This document shows, one piece after another, positions 894 to 22,100 of a stretch of DNA of 64,000 nt. Under the pieces are notes generated by a model. That model was not told where the DNA came from and searched no databases. It worked only from the letters and a program-made list of their open reading frames with translations. Numbering within the stretch: the first letter of the stretch is position 1; the number at the start of each line of letters is the position of its first letter. The translations under genes and the position numbers were made by a program. Source of the stretch: a virus (taxonomy: Duplodnaviria; Heunggongvirae; Uroviricota; Caudoviricetes); the IMG/VR virus record IMGVR_UViG_2541047680_000004. The stretch is one strand, 5' to 3'.

Positions 894-2156
894 ATGCCTT
901 TTTTAATTTTCATTATTATACTACTGCTCACCGTGATTTTTTGGGATTGGGTTGTTTTAAATGGTCAAATTGTTGGAACATTGGCTACAGCATTTGCTTT
1001 TATAGCAACAGCATGGAATGCCTACGAAGCGAGAAAAAGTGCAAAAGCAGCTTTTTCAGCCCTTCAATTAACAACAGAATCATTGTTCGAAATGCGAAAG
1101 AGTGCATTTAAACAATGGTTTGATTCCTTATTAAATCAACATGATGAGCTATGTCTTCTTGCAAAACAAATTATCGATAAACGCAAAATTAATTTAAACA
1201 GCGATGAGTTACATAGACTATATTACCCATTGGTAAAACAGCATGAGGTAATACAGTATGTGAAGCATATTATTAATATTTTTGAGTATGTGGATAGTTC
1301 ATTTTATATTGATGGGGAATGTCTAAAGGAAAAAAGAGCGTATGTGTCACAATTAATTTTCAAAATCCCACCTCAGATGAAGTTGATCATTGCTATCTTT
1401 GGATTAAAGATCGATTATTGTGAACATATTAATTCGGGAAAACTGTGTTGTTTATTAAATAAATATGATTTTTTCAATGATGAAATATTTTTTGATGATG
1501 CTTATTCAGATATGCCTTATCTGGATGCATTCATAAACCTTAGATTCAACAAAATATTCAAATCTCGAATGATAAATTATTTTGATAATATCATTAAAAG
1601 TTATTATGTTCCATCGGACGTTAAAAGGGACTGGATGTTTCGAGACCCAAAGCTCGTACCGTCGGTTCTTATGAATTATAAAACTCCTTGTTCTCCTATA
1701 ATTAATGATTACTTTGAGAAGTTGCCTTTACATGTAAGAAACTACTTTGAGGAACTACTTAAAACCGCGAATGATAGAGTTACTCATTTTGACGTTTACA
1801 TCCCACGCCTTATTGGTTGTTCAATCGTGCAACATTACGAAGATGTGCCTTCCGAAAAAAACAGGTTAAATGACAGGAATGATGTAATAGCTATGGCTGA
1901 AGATTACATCGAGAAAAGAAAATCTAATCAACTAGATTACATACTTGAAGATATATACTTCAAGAGTGACGAAGATATAATCCCAGGCCACCATTTGATT
2001 GTGGCATTTGATGACTATGAATTTAAATTATCACTCATTAAGATAAATGAGAATAAAGATAGCGATAATCTTTTAAATCGAATTTATACTGAATCCAGTA
2101 GCATGGTTAAAGAATATAAGCGCGAAATATTAAAACTGGGCGACTATGTAAAGTAA
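894..2156 (+). CDS. hypothetical membrane protein (two N-terminal TM helices plus about 360-aa soluble domain), low-GC orphan
   Basis: 420-aa ORF, strongly AT-rich relative to surroundings, opposite strand to neighbours, own terminator downstream; N-terminus FLIFIIILLLTVIFWDWVV / IVGTLATAFAFIATAW hydrophobic. Confidence 0.6.
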   Translation: MPFLIFIIILLLTVIFWDWVVLNGQIVGTLATAFAFIATAWNAYEARKSAKAAFSALQLTTESLFEMRKSAFKQWFDSLLNQHDELCLLAKQIIDKRKINLNSDELHRLYYPLVKQHEVIQYVKHIINIFEYVDSSFYIDGECLKEKRAYVSQLIFKIPPQMKLIIAIFGLKIDYCEHINSGKLCCLLNKYDFFNDEIFFDDAYSDMPYLDAFINLRFNKIFKSRMINYFDNIIKSYYVPSDVKRDWMFRDPKLVPSVLMNYKTPCSPIINDYFEKLPLHVRNYFEELLKTANDRVTHFDVYIPRLIGCSIVQHYEDVPSEKNRLNDRNDVIAMAEDYIEKRKSNQLDYILEDIYFKSDEDIIPGHHLIVAFDDYEFKLSLIKINENKDSDNLLNRIYTESSSMVKEYKREILKLGDYVK

Positions 2157-2176
2157 ATTGCACTGTTCAACAAAAA

Positions 2177-2201
2177 AGGGGCCGAAGCCCCTTTGAATTT
2201 T
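2177..2201 (+). terminator. rho-independent terminator
   Basis: aggggccgaagcccct hairpin followed by T-rich tract immediately after the 894..2156 stop. Confidence 0.55.
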
Positions 2202-2348
2202 GCGCTGAAAAAAGTGTTGCTAGGATGTTAGCAAGCTATGGTTAAGAACGTCTGCCGTAATTATCTATCACAGCGTTGAGCGGTCTGGTTTATGTTAGCG
2301 GAGTCTTAATCGAGTTGATTAAAAGGCCAAACCGCTCAACGCTGTGTC

Positions 2349-2435
2349 TGGCGGAGAGTAATGGAATCGAACCATCATCGTTTGCACAATGGGACGGTTT
2401 TCAAGACCGCTTGAGCACCATGCTCCCTACTCTCC
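2349..2435 (-). tRNA. tRNA-Ser (anticodon UGA), class II
   Basis: Hand-folded: acceptor GGAGAGT/ACTCTCC, anticodon loop CTTGAAA, long variable arm, T-loop GGTTCGATTCC, discriminator G + encoded CCA; 87 nt. Confidence 0.75.
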
Positions 2436-2755
2436 AGCTATTGTGATGGTCGGTGCTGAACTCCGACACAGGGTTGTAGCAAGCCCCGCAAAGCGCGCAC
2501 TACTGTAGTTGCGGCACATCAGCCTGTGCATTCATCACAATGGTAAGATCACTACCTTTCGACCAGTCATTGTGCACATGAACGACGATTAACCGTAATG
2601 ATATTATCGTTGTGTTGTGAAGCCAGATGCTTATCTTCTGGTTGCTTCAAAGAGCTGCACTTCCTCACAACGGTAAGAGCACTGGTCTGACTCTATCGAT
2701 TTACGGCCTTGTGGGTCAGTATCGCCGATTCGCCCAATGCTCTTACCTGTTGTGT

Positions 2756-2831
2756 TGGTGCCGGTTAACGGACTTGAACCGCTGGCCATTCGCTTACAAA
2801 ACGACTGCTCTACCAACTGAGCTAAACCGGC
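2756..2831 (-). tRNA. tRNA-Thr (anticodon UGU)
   Basis: Acceptor GCCGGTT/AACCGGC, D-arm GCTCAGTTGGTAGAGC, anticodon loop TTTGTAA, T-loop GGTTCAAGTCC, encoded CCA; one mismatch at base of anticodon stem. Confidence 0.75.
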
Positions 2832-2835
2832 AATT

Positions 2836-2922
2836 TGGTGGGGAGTGATGGAGTCGAACCACCCGAGTCGCCATGACAGTAGATTTACAGTCTACACCGC
2901 TACCTCTACGGACTAACTCCCC
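2836..2922 (-). tRNA. tRNA-Tyr (anticodon GUA), class II
   Basis: Acceptor GGGGAGT/ACTCCCC, anticodon stem GTAGA/TCTAC with loop CTGTAAA, long variable arm, T-loop GGTTCGACTCC, encoded CCA; sequence differs from the E. coli host tRNA-Tyr. Confidence 0.8.
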
Positions 2923-2927
2923 TAAAT

Positions 2928-3002
2928 TGGCGATGGTGGGTGGATTCGAACCACCGACCAGTTGGTTAACAGCCAACTGCTCTACCGCTGAGCTACACCA
3001 TC
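2928..3002 (-). tRNA. tRNA-Asn (anticodon GUU)
   Basis: Perfect cloverleaf: acceptor GATGGTG/CACCATC, D-arm GCTCAGCGGTAGAGC, anticodon stem GTTGG/CCAAC with loop CTGTTAA, T-arm GGTGGTTCGAATCCACC, encoded CCA; differs from host tRNA-Asn. Confidence 0.85.
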
Positions 3003-3780
3003 AATTCAGCACTGCCAGTATTTATTACTCAACAGTGCCAATCGCGACGGTTTAGTTTCTGCCAGGAAACGCACCGCTACTTGCACTTTTCGTTAGTGCC
3101 AGACGCTTTCGACTTCGCTCAATAGTAGAAGGCAAAATCTTTAAGTAGATGATGTTTCTGAGGACAGCACCTACTTTGTAATTTATACAATGTGATGTAT
3201 GGAATCATTTGTTGTGAAAACAGGCACCAATGGCAACAGTGGTTAAACCTACACAACAATCCCGTCTTCACAACGTTGAGGCCACTACTCCGATTGAATG
3301 TTTGCCCAACATGTTACATATCAACGCTCGCCGGTATCTCTGTGAATAGAACCTTAGAATTGATAAAAATGTAATGGCCTCAACGTTGTGTGCTGGCTAA
3401 CCATACCAGCCGGGCTACGTCGCCGCTTTTTAACCCAGTATAAACGACATAATTGAACAAAATGACGTAACAGGATGGGCGGTCAGTGGCTAAGAATCCG
3501 GGAGTCATATGGAGTTGAAAATATACCAACCGCCCATTCTGTTACTTCATCGGAGGGAACATGAATGTTCCCTCCTGCGTTCTGCAATCACACTCGCTCA
3601 GTGTGTCCCATTTCGGTAACGAGGCTGGAAACTGACCTCGCTGGTGTTTGGCTTATTAGGCTACTGCCAGATAGACTTCTTCGTTTGCACTTGTATTTAA
3701 GTTCAAACAGTCGCGTCTCAACGAAAACAAAGTCATCTTATACACAAAAGATAAGTAAGTAAATACTTATCATTGTATTT

Positions 3781-4071
3781 TTATTCGGTTGTGACTTTTT
3801 TGATCAAGGCCACTCTACGACTAGGTGTTCTTGTGATGGTGGCAGTGAATCGTTTCGCCTGGATAGTAATGGTTTCGTTCTCCTTAAGTTGCCCGTAGCG
3901 AGTTTCCACCAGGGTGCCAAGACGCCACAGACCATCATCGATACGTTTATGACTAGCAAATTTAATCAGCAACAGTTTTACGACTAACTGACCTACGTAA
4001 AAGGCGAATGCGACTCCGGCCGCTAAGAAATAGGTGGCCAACCACCAGTCCCAAGAAGTTAAATTGCTCAT
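3781..4071 (-). CDS. hypothetical small membrane protein
   Basis: 96-aa ORF with N-terminal hydrophobic helix (WLATYFLAAGVAFAFYVGQLVV). Confidence 0.4.
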   Translation of the reverse strand: MSNLTSWDWWLATYFLAAGVAFAFYVGQLVVKLLLIKFASHKRIDDGLWRLGTLVETRYGQLKENETITIQAKRFTATITRTPSRRVALIKKVTTE

Positions 4072-4216
4072 TTTCTAACCTTTGTTTCATGAACTACCCG
4101 ATACACACGCTTTCCGATACACAGTGTTTTGGTTTTAAGTTCCTGCTTAATTAAATCACGACAGATGCCGAAGCCGATAAGGAAGCCACCCATAAAAGCT
4201 AATGAGATGTATGGAA

Positions 4217-4432
4217 TCATTTTAACACTCCTGATTCTACTAATTGCTGTAGCAATACTTTCCCTTTATCAGTTAACTGGTAGTTGGCCGAACACTTCGT
4301 TTCAGAAACGTTTGCAACCAACCCTAACCGCTCTAACTTAGCTCGCGTTTTAGGCTTCCAGTACTCAGGGAACTCCGGCCACTTACTGATTTCATGAAGC
4401 GTTTCCTTCTCCCGTTTACTTAATACGATCAT
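4217..4432 (-). CDS. hypothetical small protein
   Basis: 71-aa ORF in phage early-type region. Confidence 0.3.
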   Translation of the reverse strand: MIVLSKREKETLHEISKWPEFPEYWKPKTRAKLERLGLVANVSETKCSANYQLTDKGKVLLQQLVESGVLK

Positions 4433-4591
4433 CCTTAATCTCCTTCACGGTGTTGGTTATTTCTACAATGCGATAAATGCGACCTCGTCTTTCTATAACA
4501 CCGTTTTTAATGTAGTCATTAATGCAACTGGACATCACCACAATACCGATGAAAAAACCAACTGCTAAAAATGCAATCATCCAGCCGAGCA

Positions 4592-5914
4592 TCATTCTTT
4601 ATCTCCGATTCGATCTTCTGTATCGCGTAAGCAACGCGGCCATTTCAGTCGTGGGTGGCGTAAGCTGCCATCCGGCGTTTTCTCGTGACAATGAACCTCG
4701 ACAATACGACCACGGTACTTCTCTTTGTTGTTCCAGATCTCGTCCAGATATTTATGCTTAATGCCGCTCGCACGAACAATCACACCGTTTTCAAGGCGAA
4801 TAACAATTTTTCCAAGCGTGTTGGCAAAACCAGAGTCCGGGTCGCCCGGCTCAAAGTCGATAATTTCACCATCTTCTGAATCTTCGTCTTTTAACTTCCA
4901 CCAGCTGCGGGTACGTTTAAACTCGTAAACAGAGTTCGGATCTTTGCCCATCTCCCCTTCTTCGTTATCGTCCAGGCGTTTCATGAAGCGTTCGATGAAA
5001 TCTTCGTGGCTATGGATGATATAGAACGGATGCAGGTGAATGTCTTGTGCGTAGCCTTCACTGCGATCGTTTTTAAACAACGCCACCAGCATAGCCAGGC
5101 GCTCTTTCAGCTTCATACCTGTCTTTGCATACTCTTTGGATTTAGCCTGTGCCCGCCATTCCGGTAGGAAGAAGTCGAAAACATGATAAATAGCGCCAAT
5201 TGCCTGCACGTTCTTTTTGCGCAATGCAGATACGGACTGGTTAAATGAACCGGCTGTTCCTTCACCATCGAAGAAGATGTGTTTGTGGCCTGAAAGTTTG
5301 CCTAATTCGAGCATTGCTGGCTTTAGGTGATCGAGAGACGTGATTGGATTACCAGTACGAGAAAGGAAGTTAACCTCTTCCTCGTCAACAATAACCTCGC
5401 AAATTACTCGCAAACCATCGAGCTTAAGACTGCCAATCATCGGCCATTTTGCTTTAGGATTTGGCTTGAAGGGGTATTTGTCGCCTTTTTCTTTATACGG
5501 TGACGCCAGCTGCACCTCGAATTTCGGAATGGGATTTTCAAAAACCTTGTTGCATAGGCTAATCCCAACACCTGCTTTCGGGTCTTTTAAGAGGAAACGA
5601 CGGAACACGTCCTGCCCATCGGCGCACATTGACGCCACGATAGACTCAACAGCTGCTATTGCTGCGTTCCCCGTTAGCTCGCGAGAGGCCAGCTTATTCA
5701 GTATATCAATGGCTTTTTCGTCACTTGGGACGGACTCACTAAGCGGCTCTGCCACTTTGTATTTCTTTACCCCAAAACGGATGAAAGGGTTGAGCATCAA
5801 TGAAACCATGCTTTGTTCAAAGTCATCCATGTTGGCCAATGCCTCTTTTTTTGCATTGGTTCCCATAGCTTTCATTTCGTCCAGCTTATGCTTAAGTGCG
5901 ATCAACTTTTTCAT
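4592..5914 (-). CDS. ATP-dependent DNA ligase
   Basis: Adenylation motif I KxDG(x)R present as SLKLDGLRV; 440 aa, size and layout typical of phage ATP-dependent ligases. Confidence 0.8.
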   Translation of the reverse strand: MKKLIALKHKLDEMKAMGTNAKKEALANMDDFEQSMVSLMLNPFIRFGVKKYKVAEPLSESVPSDEKAIDILNKLASRELTGNAAIAAVESIVASMCADGQDVFRRFLLKDPKAGVGISLCNKVFENPIPKFEVQLASPYKEKGDKYPFKPNPKAKWPMIGSLKLDGLRVICEVIVDEEEVNFLSRTGNPITSLDHLKPAMLELGKLSGHKHIFFDGEGTAGSFNQSVSALRKKNVQAIGAIYHVFDFFLPEWRAQAKSKEYAKTGMKLKERLAMLVALFKNDRSEGYAQDIHLHPFYIIHSHEDFIERFMKRLDDNEEGEMGKDPNSVYEFKRTRSWWKLKDEDSEDGEIIDFEPGDPDSGFANTLGKIVIRLENGVIVRASGIKHKYLDEIWNNKEKYRGRIVEVHCHEKTPDGSLRHPRLKWPRCLRDTEDRIGDKE

Positions 5915-19177: not shown

Positions 19178-22100
19178 TTATTCTTTAGGTGAATTTAACT
19201 TCGTTTCAAGCTCCTCAACCCTTTTGGTCAATTGCTGAATATGATGAATGAGTGGTACAACCAAACGCTCATACATCACTCCTTCAGCGACCATACCATT
19301 TGAGGAAATATCTCCTGGAGAATCATTATTTGTTGGTTCACGCCAATGGACATATTGCGGGGCAATCTCACCAACCTCTTCAGCAATAAGGCCGTAATAC
19401 CCCCAATCCTTTCGGTCACCTCGACAAATTGAACGATACCAAACAGGTCTTAATGACAAAAGTTCATCAGCATATCGATCTTGTAATGTTTCAATATCCT
19501 TTTTATAGCGCCTTGAAGATGTTGAACGCCAAACTGTATTGATACCTGGGTTTGGATCAATGTACATATTGGCACCGCTAGTAGTTGTGCCAATATCCCA
19601 TATAGCAAACCCTCCACTACCGCCTGATTTGACAACCAGTGTTTCAGCAATAATATCCAGGTTGCCACTATAGCCTGTCAGTGATGATCTGCTTGCATAG
19701 GAACTTAGAAGGTTTGTTACCTCTGTTTTCGTATAAGCATTAAGGTTAGCCGCAGTCAAAGTAATATCGGCAGAGCCATCAAACGCCACACCAGCAATTT
19801 TCCTTGCTGTCTGCAATTTTGTGGCTGTTGCGGCATTACCAGTAGTATTCTGATTACCGGTTGTATTCACACCAGGGATTGAATCCTTAGCGGTATATAC
19901 CTGCGCCCACGCTGACCATGCCGCATCAGTGGTATCTCTTCTGGAGCGAATGAAAACCGGCGCATGTGCACCGCTCGTACCACTCCAGCCAATAAGCAAC
20001 TCGCCCTCACCAGCAGCACTCGCACCTTTCATGTGCAATACGTTGCCATACGTGGTCGGGTAGCTATTGTTGTACGCCTCGTACATTTGAATGCCAGCAG
20101 TACCTTGAGTAGAACCGCTTAAAGCCGTAACTCGACCACGAGAAACCAATGTATTAATATTGATATCACCTGAACCATCAAACTTAACACCATTGATGTT
20201 TCTCGCTGTTTGCAACTTCGTAGCTGTTGAAGCATTGCCATTCAAGCTACCATTTACGCCACCAGTAACATTTAGTCCATTACCAATAGACACAACACCG
20301 CTGCTATTATTAATTATAATCGGTCGCAAACTGTTCCATGAACCTAACGTATCTCCTGATGCTGTTAGCATGAAATATGTGCTGCCGCCGTCATTACGGA
20401 TAAAGAACCCGTAGTTACCGTAAGCAATGCGGAAACCATTTGCATATTTTGAAACGATCTCACCAGAAGACGTCAACCCTCCAGATAATGTGCCACCTGA
20501 AAGCGGTAATGCTCCTACATCAGAAGCTGTTGGTTTGTTTCTAGTGTTATAAGAACGACGCCAGCCTGGCGCATAATCACTCCCATTGTACACATAAATA
20601 AATTCCGCATTATTAACACCACCATGACCTGATGTTGTTGCCGTTGTAACACGAATAGTGTAGTGGCTTGTTGCCTTATTACTAAACACCTCAATCACGG
20701 AACCAGATAGATCGATCCTACCGCAACCAGTGTCGTCTATATAATTATTGTTGGCGTAAGTCCATGAGCACCGTGCGATCCAATGTTTGTTTGTAAATGC
20801 CCCCTGATTGTTTAGCCAAGTTATAAATTGAGCAGTCGTAAATGCCGTTCCGTTACCACTATTTAACCATCCAGCGGCAGCGGTTGGTGCGTTTATATCA
20901 GCCGGCTGAGGCATAAATCCAGTCGTGTAAACCTGCTCCCAACCACTTTCAAAACCATAGCCATCTCTTGAGGAACGGTAGAACAGACCACCATTTTTAT
21001 AGTGAGCTTTAATTTGAAGCGTACGGCAACTACCTACACCGGTATAAAAGTTGGCAAGAATATAACTGGCGCCTGTTCTAGTTACATTGTAAGCACCAGA
21101 TTCAGCATTCCACGGCACGCCACCATCAGCATCCGCATATGACCCTGTTGCCCTTCTTGCGAAAGCGGCAACATGCGCAGCGGTTAAAGTGATATCAGTA
21201 GAACCATCAAATGGAACACCGGATATTTTTCTTGCAGTCTGAAGTTTTGTAGCAGTTGCAGCATTACCAGTGGTGTTCTGATTACCCGTAGTGTTTACAC
21301 CTGGAAGGTTGATATTTGCAGAACCGTCGAAACCAACTCCACCGATAGATCTTGCCGTCTGCAATTTCGTTGCTGTACTTGCATTACCATTTAATGTTCC
21401 GGTGATCCCACCAGTAACAGACAACGGACCTGAAACTGTTCCTCCGGTTGTTGGCAGTGCTCCAATATCTAACGGCGTCGGTTTCTGATGTGTGCTATAC
21501 ATCGTATAAACAACACCATCGGTAACGCTGGAAGGCTTACTCGCTGAATATGTTGGCGATGTATAAACAGAAACTGACGCATTTGCAGTACAATCCCAAT
21601 GGATATTTACACTCGTCGCATAATTGCCAATTTCAACGTAAATATCATATGTATCGCCGGATGTGTTGATCCAGGCGAAATTCGTTAATCCGACAGCTGT
21701 ACGCTTCCACAAAGCACCTGTAATCCCTTTGGGGTTTCCATTGCCTGCTCGTAGAACCAGTTCTGAAATGCCTGCCTGATGTGGGGAGCCGACGTTGTAA
21801 CCAGCGCCACCAATCAATGCGATGTAAACGATGGAACTCGCTTGTGGCATTGTAACAGTAGCCAGTTTGAACCACCCGGCCCCGCCAGAGAAAGACATCG
21901 TTATTGAATTTAAAGTACCAATATCTTTCGGCGTTAATGTGATATCCGCAGTCAGTGCTTTCCCGTTAATTTTTCGGTTAGATGGCACCCTGCTGTTCGC
22001 ATTGTCATTGACTACTTTAACTGCTTTTGGCGTTGCGGCCAGCGATTCACTGGTGCTGTCGACAGCACTGCTAAGTTTCACAACACCTTTAGTTGTAAGG

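Follow-up and report, generated by a model that had tools for sequence, protein, structure and literature searches.

Conserved hairpins beside the tRNAs of an Escherichia phage-plasmid are probable RNase III processing sites

The tRNA genes in a 64,000-nucleotide stretch of tailed-phage DNA (IMG/VR record IMGVR_UViG_2541047680_000004, Caudoviricetes; the whole stretch is referred to below as the window) are accompanied by two families of structured RNA element. Type A elements are hairpins of about 20 bp with conserved arm sequence and an unrelated top of 24-82 nt, while type B elements carry smaller hairpins within a closing helix. Both lie in the untranslated tail of a transcript, which spans 3780 to 2175 on the minus strand. 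We consider it probable that the type A hairpins are RNase III processing sites which punctuate this untranslated tRNA and small RNA (sRNA) transcript. Both families recur between the tRNAs and sRNAs of many enterobacterial temperate phages, and the Escherichia coli K-12 copy of type A coincides with an experimentally mapped RNase III cut, which makes processing signals, rather than tRNA relics, the most likely identity of these elements. The helices are under selection for base pairing at the RNA level on the tRNA strand, both families are common to several phage lineages (P1, D6, SSU5-like and lambdoid), and the K-12 family member sits where a published RNase III-dependent 5' end maps. From sequence, we infer that RNase III likewise cuts the window's own copies and in doing so contributes to the maturation of the tRNAs.

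The families are described by two covariance models, R1 for type A and R2 for type B. Type A elements are 65-122 nt long and take the form 5'-CACAAC-(A)-GKURAG-NNN-AYUGG ... CCAGU-NNN-CUYAMC-GUUGUG-3'; within the window their arms are similar enough to constitute a single direct-repeat family. In an alignment of 41 diverse copies, 92.2% of cells were paired, versus 36-56% when the arms were matched with slid partners, and 14 of the 20 pairs had changed on both sides. None of 500 shuffles matched the observed values, a control limited by the relatedness of many of the 41 sequences. In the three-pair NNN block, nevertheless, at least six compensating variants occur within arms which are the same in all other positions. 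The tops behave differently from the arms: six or more unrelated interiors are found inside identical arms (CACAACAGGUAAGAGCA/UGCUCUUACCGUUGUG), and tops are not kept between orthologous positions.

Three properties indicate which strand is under selection. Among 94 unique type A copies, oriented as their neighbouring tRNAs, the helix averages about 20 pairs (1675 Watson-Crick and 215 G-U in total), and the 215 G-U pairs compare with 59 A-C mismatches. Single-base bulges fall on the 5' arm in all 32 cases, and these bulged, strand-diagnostic copies are always on the strand of the neighbouring tRNAs. Finally, R1 scored the sense orientation higher for every copy, both in the window (by 11-20 bits) and at 18 other loci; in lambdoid prophages and in K-12, the flanking genes also read in the sense orientation. 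The G-U excess, the one-sided bulge and the sense scores together argue for selection on a single sense strand, most simply the transcript, and not on duplex DNA.

Type B elements take the form 5'-RUUGUGRUGAAU-[GCRCA-GGCUGA-UGYGC]-variable-[5-bp hairpin]-CCAYCACAAY-3'. Their closing helix is paired in all 18 copies, with two covarying positions, and the 5' hairpin covaries at each of its five pairs. The GUUGUG with which type B starts is also the end of the preceding type A element. This overlap renders the two helices mutually exclusive over six nucleotides. Three such A-B units occur in the window, namely E3-E4, E2-mini-B and E1-E8, whose members are described below. The conserved 5' part of type B, GUGAUGA...CUGA (window 2517-2541, minus strand), also resembles the C and D boxes found in C/D RNAs of archaea (Rfam sR7, 15.7 bits, E = 0.1), probably by chance.

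All five R1 copies in the window fall within 2266-3549, and in a generic hairpin scan, large-loop stems of at least 20 bp numbered four within these 1.3 kb and about two in the remaining 62 kb; the clustering of the hairpins is not chance. Fold stability was assessed as the minus-strand folding energy relative to 200 shuffles and is reported as a z-score. E1 (3269-3390, minus strand as are all elements here) is, at 122 nt, the longest element of the window, with a 20-23-bp stem (CACAACGUUGAGGCCAUUAC / GUAGUGGCCUCAACGUUGUG; z = -5.8) and an R1 score of 51.3 bits on the minus strand versus 35.0 on the plus. E2 (2666-2754, 89 nt) pairs over 6 + 14 bp, with a bulged A in its 5' arm (z = -6.1; 65.6 versus 46.8 bits). 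E5 (2269-2346, 78 nt) has a 20-bp stem including one U-G pair and folds at -41.2 kcal/mol (z = -9.6; 50.2 versus 39.0 bits). E6 (3466-3546), of an AACAG subtype, has 22-nt arms which are 91% complementary, in a helix of 22-27 bp reaching 3462-3550 (z = -5.8; 34.5 versus 14.6 bits). Directly 5' of it lies E7 (3552-3575), a short 11-bp hairpin (z = -4.6) whose position is kept, with covarying stems, in pJN2-26, SSU5 and other relatives. No shuffle was as stable as the native fold for E5, E2, E6 or E7. The remaining type A copy, E3 (2536-2614), is degenerate, with 17 of 20 pairs (37.7 versus 19.9 bits), and its orthologue is intact in CMS-2020a (L003 1412-1490).

In the principal type B element, E4 (2440-2541), the closing helix is 9 bp long (AUUGUGAUG / CAUCACAAU) and encloses two hairpins, GCACA-GGCUGA-UGUGC on the 5' side and GUCGG...CCGAC on the 3' side, with a variable stretch between them. 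R2 scored it at 90.8 bits on the minus strand and found no match on the plus strand at E up to 0.1. Taken by itself, the fold does not stand out from shuffled sequence (z = -1.4, with 23 of 200 shuffles as good), and the reality of E4 rests on conservation, as all 18 homologues can form the closing helix and compensatory changes occur in it. A mini type B element (mini-B) occupies 2614-2671, between E2 and E3, with the closing helix GUUGUGAGGAAG / CUUCACAAC; its R2 match spans 2611-2674 (18.6 bits, E = 0.005). It has equivalents in P1, D6, Ro157c2YLVW and pJN2-26, in the last of which its spacer is also conserved. E8 (3211-3274) is a B-like hairpin with a 14-bp closing helix (GUUGUGAAGACGGG / CCUGUUUUCACAAC), sharing GUUGUG with the 3' arm of E1. 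Counterparts of its stem carry compensating changes in SSU5 (GTTGTGAAAGCAGG/CCTGGTTTCACAAC) and pJN2-26 (CGTTGTGGTCACGG/CCGTGGCCACAACG).

An earlier, sequence-only reading of this DNA had pointed to five inverted repeats as candidate stable RNAs, processing signals or degenerate tRNA relics. All five are present where it placed them, four as the cores of longer helices or with similar corrections. The stem at 2271-2344 was real but under-measured, being the inner part of the 20-bp helix of E5, and that at 2672-2749 is likewise the inner part of E2. The repeat at 3473-3536 proved to be the core of the E6 helix, while that at 3551-3575 corresponds to E7. The 9-bp stem at 2440-2542 is that of E4, real in spite of its unremarkable folding energy. 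"At least three" repeats among the tRNAs and two upstream were indeed found, but E1, E3 and E8 had been overlooked, as had the minus-strand location of the tRNAs and hairpins and the existence of families common with P1 and lambdoid phages. Covariation could be examined as it had proposed, since homologous elements exist and their stems covary; non-conservation in related elements, together with the lack of a transcript, had been named as grounds for abandoning the idea, and the structures are conserved. Of its three readings, selection at the RNA level, adjacency to tRNA 3' ends and the K-12 homologue at a published RNase III site favour processing signals. That the window hairpins persist as stable small RNAs is possible.

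The four tRNAs were located by ARAGORN and Rfam, all on the minus strand and in the order Asn-Tyr-Thr-Ser: tRNA-Asn (GTT, 2928-3002; Rfam tRNA 75.5 bits), tRNA-Tyr (GTA, 2836-2922), tRNA-Thr (TGT, 2756-2831) and tRNA-Ser (TGA, 2349-2435; Rfam clan match). The CCA end of tRNA-Thr, at 2756, lies one nucleotide before E2, giving the junction tRNA-Thr-CCA-A-E2, and the corresponding junction at E5 is tRNA-Ser-CCA-GA-E5. This arrangement recurs elsewhere, with 33 of the 94 unique type A copies starting within -2 to +2 nt of a tRNA 3' end; in pJN2-26 the hairpin takes in the last two bases of CCA.

The same arms are found in P1, D6, Ro157c2YLVW, SSU5, pJN2-26 and more than 120 IMG/VR contigs. Some copies have no tRNA nearby, and arrays of A-B units fill two types of leader. 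In Pantoea-type lambdoid prophages (L011-L013, L140), this is the interval which separates a CI-like repressor gene from the first early gene; in one prophage of E. coli (L145), it is the late leader, from Q to the holin. A copy of E4 in a lambdoid prophage late leader is 97% identical to that of the window, and the E3-E4 module as a whole is 96-97% identical among SSU5-like plasmids, P1-like plasmids and a lambdoid prophage with unrelated flanks. Window positions 2436-2756 are matched in 749 of 5426 complete E. coli genomes. A pattern scan of one genome per species found true copies only in Enterobacterales, hits in other phyla being dismissed as chance matches or simple repeats. The K-12 prophage DLP12 gave no matches. 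With put-type antiterminator RNAs in mind, R2 was applied to HK022 between 20 and 40.7 kb and found nothing there (R1 was not applied to HK022).

Two annotations in related elements overlie such structures. The P1 open reading frames (ORFs) upl and plp (L001, NC_005856.1, 1213-1945, that is 69472-70204 of the record) run antisense over a tRNA-Thr and three A/B units. The equivalent stretch has no annotated ORF in D6 and one small hypothetical ORF on the opposite strand in Ro157c2YLVW, and a CRISPRi screen scored both P1 ORFs as non-essential. They are probably not genes. In pSTEC388_1 (L146 1070-1202), PGAP annotates a 133-nt "tRNA-OTHER", which combines the acceptor, D and T arms of tRNA-Thr with about 57 nt inserted at the anticodon region.

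The most direct link to RNase III comes from the K-12 prophage Qin, where R2 unexpectedly matched the interval between dicF and dicB (L147, NC_000913.3, 21452-21585). With filters off, R1 found a full-length type A element about 125 nt upstream of dicF (L147 21171-21260), scoring 32.8 bits in the sense orientation versus 10.9 antisense; a second A-B unit lies upstream of essQ (L147 13059-13227, minus strand). A 190-nt DicF species, whose 5' end was mapped by primer extension, is absent without RNase III, and ydfA-containing transcripts are lost in an rnc mutant (PMC10448788). RNase III is also reported to generate the 3' end of a 72-nt DicF (PMC5069750). Counting 190 nt back from the DicF 3' end (21435-21439) leads to 21246-21250, within the 3' arm of the type A element (21238-21257, or 1649237-1649256 in NC_000913.3), so that by length arithmetic the cut would lie some 8-12 nt above the stem base. 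The corresponding count of 72 nt, taken downstream from the 5' end of DicF, leads to 21454, where the type B closing helix has its foot; in K-12 this helix reaches about 26 bp. By this arithmetic, the Qin type A and type B elements match the two reported RNase III sites flanking DicF.

These observations suggest a simple scheme. The transcript would run from a DNA-ligase operon through the tRNAs to a terminator at 2175, and host RNase III would cut the type A duplexes, which are near-perfect over about 20 bp. Each cut would detach a tRNA, or a tRNA-sized structured unit, from the RNA downstream, as expected of a hairpin which starts 1-2 nt past CCA. It would leave a single-stranded trailer of about 10 nt for exonuclease trimming, and would separate the mRNA upstream from the block of tRNAs. 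Type B would then represent a second structured module following type A, with GUUGUG in common. A good E. coli RNase III substrate presents about two helical turns, or some 20 bp of continuous double-stranded RNA, and near-perfect 20-bp duplexes are expected to be targets in that host. The minus-strand stems are of this size, at 20-23 bp in E1, 6 + 14 bp in E2, 20 bp in E5 and 22-27 bp in E6. Similar logic underlies the RNase III stems around rRNAs and the processing sites of T7, lambda and T4.

Several points weigh against RNase III processing as a complete account. RNase III needs no particular stem sequence, and its action does not explain why arm sequence is conserved while tops are replaced. 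The 9-bp closing helix of the window's type B element is short for this enzyme, and a 20-bp hairpin abutting CCA could equally impede 3' maturation. Phage tRNAs do not generally require such hairpins, as the late-leader tRNAs of the Stx2 phage Sp5 have no type A hairpin beside them (a single weak B-like match was found in that phage). The K-12 cut positions, moreover, were computed from reported RNA lengths and not from the nucleotide marked in the published figure. Conserved arms in unrelated phages, the wholesale replacement of tops and T-arm-like interiors all fall outside the account. Top replacement and T-arm interiors, together with the gain and loss of units at CACAA repeats and the sharing of E3-E4, keep alive the ideas that the elements carry payload RNAs or act as recombination linkers.

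According to the first of these ideas, which we regard as rather unlikely, the stems are packaging, and the variable tops or the entire hairpins are functional stable RNAs; their roles would be those of decoys for tRNA-directed host nucleases, or of regulators like the stable RNAs of T4 and T5. The unrelated tops within identical arms would suit such cargo, as would the adjacency to tRNAs, given that other phages use tRNAs against tRNA-cleaving defences. Some tops contain perfect T-arm-like hairpins (CAGAG-UUCGACU-CUCUG, with a 5-bp stem and the loop UUCGACU, at L028 8902-8988, and GGGUUCGAAUCCC in P1 at L001 1828-1914), and a tRNA-Ser-linked subtype keeps the loop motif AAGACUCCGC in SSU5-like, Klebsiella and divergent E. 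coli plasmids. However, the T-arm motifs occur in few copies and on either side of the loop (one at the 5' side of its top, the other at the 3' side), the tops that follow tRNA-Thr are unrelated among the window, P1 and Ro157c2YLVW, and no element reaches an Rfam threshold. The second idea operates on DNA: arms ending in CACAAC/GTTGTG would be crossover points at which units of tRNA or sRNA plus hairpin are shuffled within and between phages, loosely as at integron attC sites, whose core RYYYAAC...GTTRRRY the arm ends loosely resemble. Close relatives do carry cassette-like tRNA sets (Asn-Tyr-Thr-Ser, Asn-Thr-Ser, Asn-Ser, Asn alone, Arg-Tyr-Thr-Ser), with whole units present or absent and junctions at CACAA repeats. 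CMS-2020a lacks exactly E2 and mini-B, Cyrano lacks everything between tRNA-Thr and tRNA-Ser, and the near-identity of the E3-E4 module across SSU5-like, P1-like and lambdoid backgrounds points the same way. We nonetheless judge this improbable. G-U pairs outnumber A-C mismatches and the bulge is confined to one arm, both of which point to selection on one transcribed strand and not on duplex DNA, and covariation along 20-bp arms exceeds the needs of a protein site. P1, SSU5-like and lambdoid phages have no recombinase in common, an integron integrase is not annotated, target-site duplications are absent, and slippage or homologous recombination between short direct repeats would equally give unit loss. 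A combination of these ideas with cutting, in which RNase III-cut stems double as excision signals and recombination linkers and the interiors are payloads traded among P1-like, SSU5-like and lambdoid phages, would make A/B elements modular RNA cassettes; tRNAs, DicF-like sRNAs and tRNA-arm hairpins would be released as stable RNAs, some of them decoys against tRNA-directed defences. Taken as a whole, this remains a speculative proposal with a small chance of being correct.

The hairpins might also act without being cut, by blocking 3'-5' exonucleases or Rho loading on 1.6 kb of untranslated RNA. That stretch is long and almost wholly folded, and the disappearance of K-12 ydfA transcripts in the rnc mutant indicates that structure and processing there affect the stability of upstream RNA. 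It is difficult to see such duplexes escaping RNase III in E. coli, however, and the homologous K-12 hairpin stands at a mapped cut site; passive structure has no need of conserved arm sequence either, and we hold it to be a poor prospect. Degenerate tRNA genes or Y-RNA-like tRNA mimics are the least credible option, and we give them almost no weight. Type B has a cloverleaf-like layout, in which a 3-nt linker leads from the closing helix to the 5' hairpin and the 3' hairpin abuts the 3' strand of that helix, and a few type A tops carry the T-arm motifs. On the other side, ARAGORN at default, 95% and 80% settings returned the four true tRNAs only, plus one spurious transfer-messenger RNA (tmRNA) call at 80%, and its calls at 70% lie off the elements; the relaxed search proposed by the earlier reading thus gave no pseudo-tRNA at the hairpins, and its suggestion of tRNA relics is unsupported. 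The Rfam tRNA model found nothing beyond the four at E up to 10. The YrlA Y RNA model likewise gave no match in the window (its single match, in P1, overlaps true tRNAs), and no gene resembling Ro/TROVE is annotated in the near-identical plasmid.

Searches against other known families were similarly restrictive. Across the whole window, only tRNAs reached Rfam gathering thresholds, and neither type A nor type B did so; at E up to 10, the region added only noise (sX4, snoRNA and tmRNA fragments). The window type B gave no match to STnc100 (RF02076) even when searched alone, while the K-12 and P1 type B subtypes scored 34.1 and 33.4 bits, below the gathering score of 47. DicF had no Rfam match in the window and no resemblance by eye. 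Integron attC sites were rejected, as the (U)CACAAC/GUUGUG(A) ends fit only in part, the helix is continuous and the only annotated tyrosine recombinases are of plasmid type. A miniature inverted-repeat or other small transposable element was set aside because the flanks show no duplication and the interiors are unrelated between copies. As for intrinsic terminators, only 2175-2194 qualifies; a U run follows none of the long hairpins.

The region resembles SSU5-like Escherichia phage-plasmids, with CMS-2020a and Cyrano at 96-98% identity and plasmid pSTEC409_1 identical over window 3005-3790. The tRNAs form the end of a minus-strand operon headed by an ATP-dependent DNA ligase gene and a number of small ORFs, the last of these before the untranslated stretch being a 96-aa ORF at 3781-4071. 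No ORF above 73 aa exists in 2157-3780, the sizeable ones are antisense over the tRNAs, and a coding explanation of this interval was rejected on these grounds. Promoter-like sites numbered zero on both strands of 2050-4700, against 3.9 expected. The absence of a long ORF and of a promoter-like site implies that the tRNAs and hairpins are the 1.6-kb untranslated tail of a polycistronic transcript. A terminator scan placed a single strong terminator, AAAGGGGCUUCGGCCCCUUU followed by a U run (2175-2194, minus strand), directly past the last hairpin, where the tRNA/hairpin transcript would end.

Two neighbouring genes may be mentioned. The 96-aa ORF is called "C-type natriuretic protein" in SSU5 and many RefSeq plasmids, a label which looks like a propagated annotation artefact, as the protein has no Pfam match. 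On the plus strand, a 420-aa ORF (894-2156) converges on the tRNA operon, with which it has the terminator in common. It has 31-34% G+C versus 43-46% in its surroundings, no Pfam domain and a weak PADLOC match to PtuB (E = 9e-4, 16.9 bits). Relatives hold different genes at the same spot, which gives it the appearance of variable cargo.

An RNase III hairpin in a phage polycistronic RNA is a known kind of element. The novelty appears to lie in a conserved family whose stems are fixed in sequence, abut tRNA 3' ends and are paired with a second module. That this family is common to P1, SSU5-like and lambdoid phages, and takes in the two RNase III sites flanking DicF, also appears to be new. Full-text searches on the arm sequences, on P1 plp/upl and on SSU5 hairpins gave no description of the hairpins as a family in the literature covered, which excepted some key older work. 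Through this analysis, about 1.6 kb of a common E. coli phage-plasmid, formerly spacer without annotation, can be read as defined RNA elements with a link to the DicF-flanking sites of K-12. The analysis suggests that P1 plp and upl are artefacts over structured RNAs, and gives the cassette-like differences in tRNA content between phage-plasmids a concrete basis in sequence. It also predicts that P1 and SSU5-like elements rely on host RNase III to mature the tRNAs which they encode. R1 and R2 could seed new RNA families.

Comparison with established systems places the elements between several of them. Integron attC sites (59-base elements) are imperfect inverted repeats of 57-141 bp with ends ..AAC / GTT.. 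and a variable centre, directly 3' of a cassette gene, and in these respects are alike; here, however, there is no integrase, unpaired central spacer or pattern of extrahelical bases, and the asymmetry follows the transcribed strand. STnc100, a prophage sRNA of Salmonella and E. coli, is related to PasD (bioRxiv 10.64898/2026.05.13.724894). The K-12 and P1 type B elements match positions 21-154 of its model and are likewise prophage-borne, but STnc100/PasD are described as terminator-ended, Hfq-binding sRNAs (same source), whereas the window type B is internal to a transcript. The T4 and T5 tRNA clusters (species 1 and 2) also co-encode non-tRNA structured RNAs with phage tRNAs; by description, the T4 stable RNAs are discrete conserved genes, while the elements here have conserved stems and non-conserved tops. 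The T7 early R sites, the lambda N leader and sib, and the T4 tRNA precursor are, likewise by description, long host-cut hairpins between transcript units, and paralogous sites within one such phage are similar. T7 sites have an internal loop and are cut once, whereas the window's hairpins pair almost perfectly, lie against the CCA end and have tops which can be exchanged. The closest parallel is the Qin DicF site (Faubladier et al. 1990; Ragunathan et al. 2023, PMC10448788), which was published as a single processing site and not as a member of a family, and which precedes an Hfq-binding sRNA in place of following a tRNA. It is nevertheless a homologous hairpin of about 22 bp, with CAUAAC...GUUGUG ends and a one-base bulge in the 5' arm, set in an untranslated stretch of a phage early operon which adjoins a small stable RNA.

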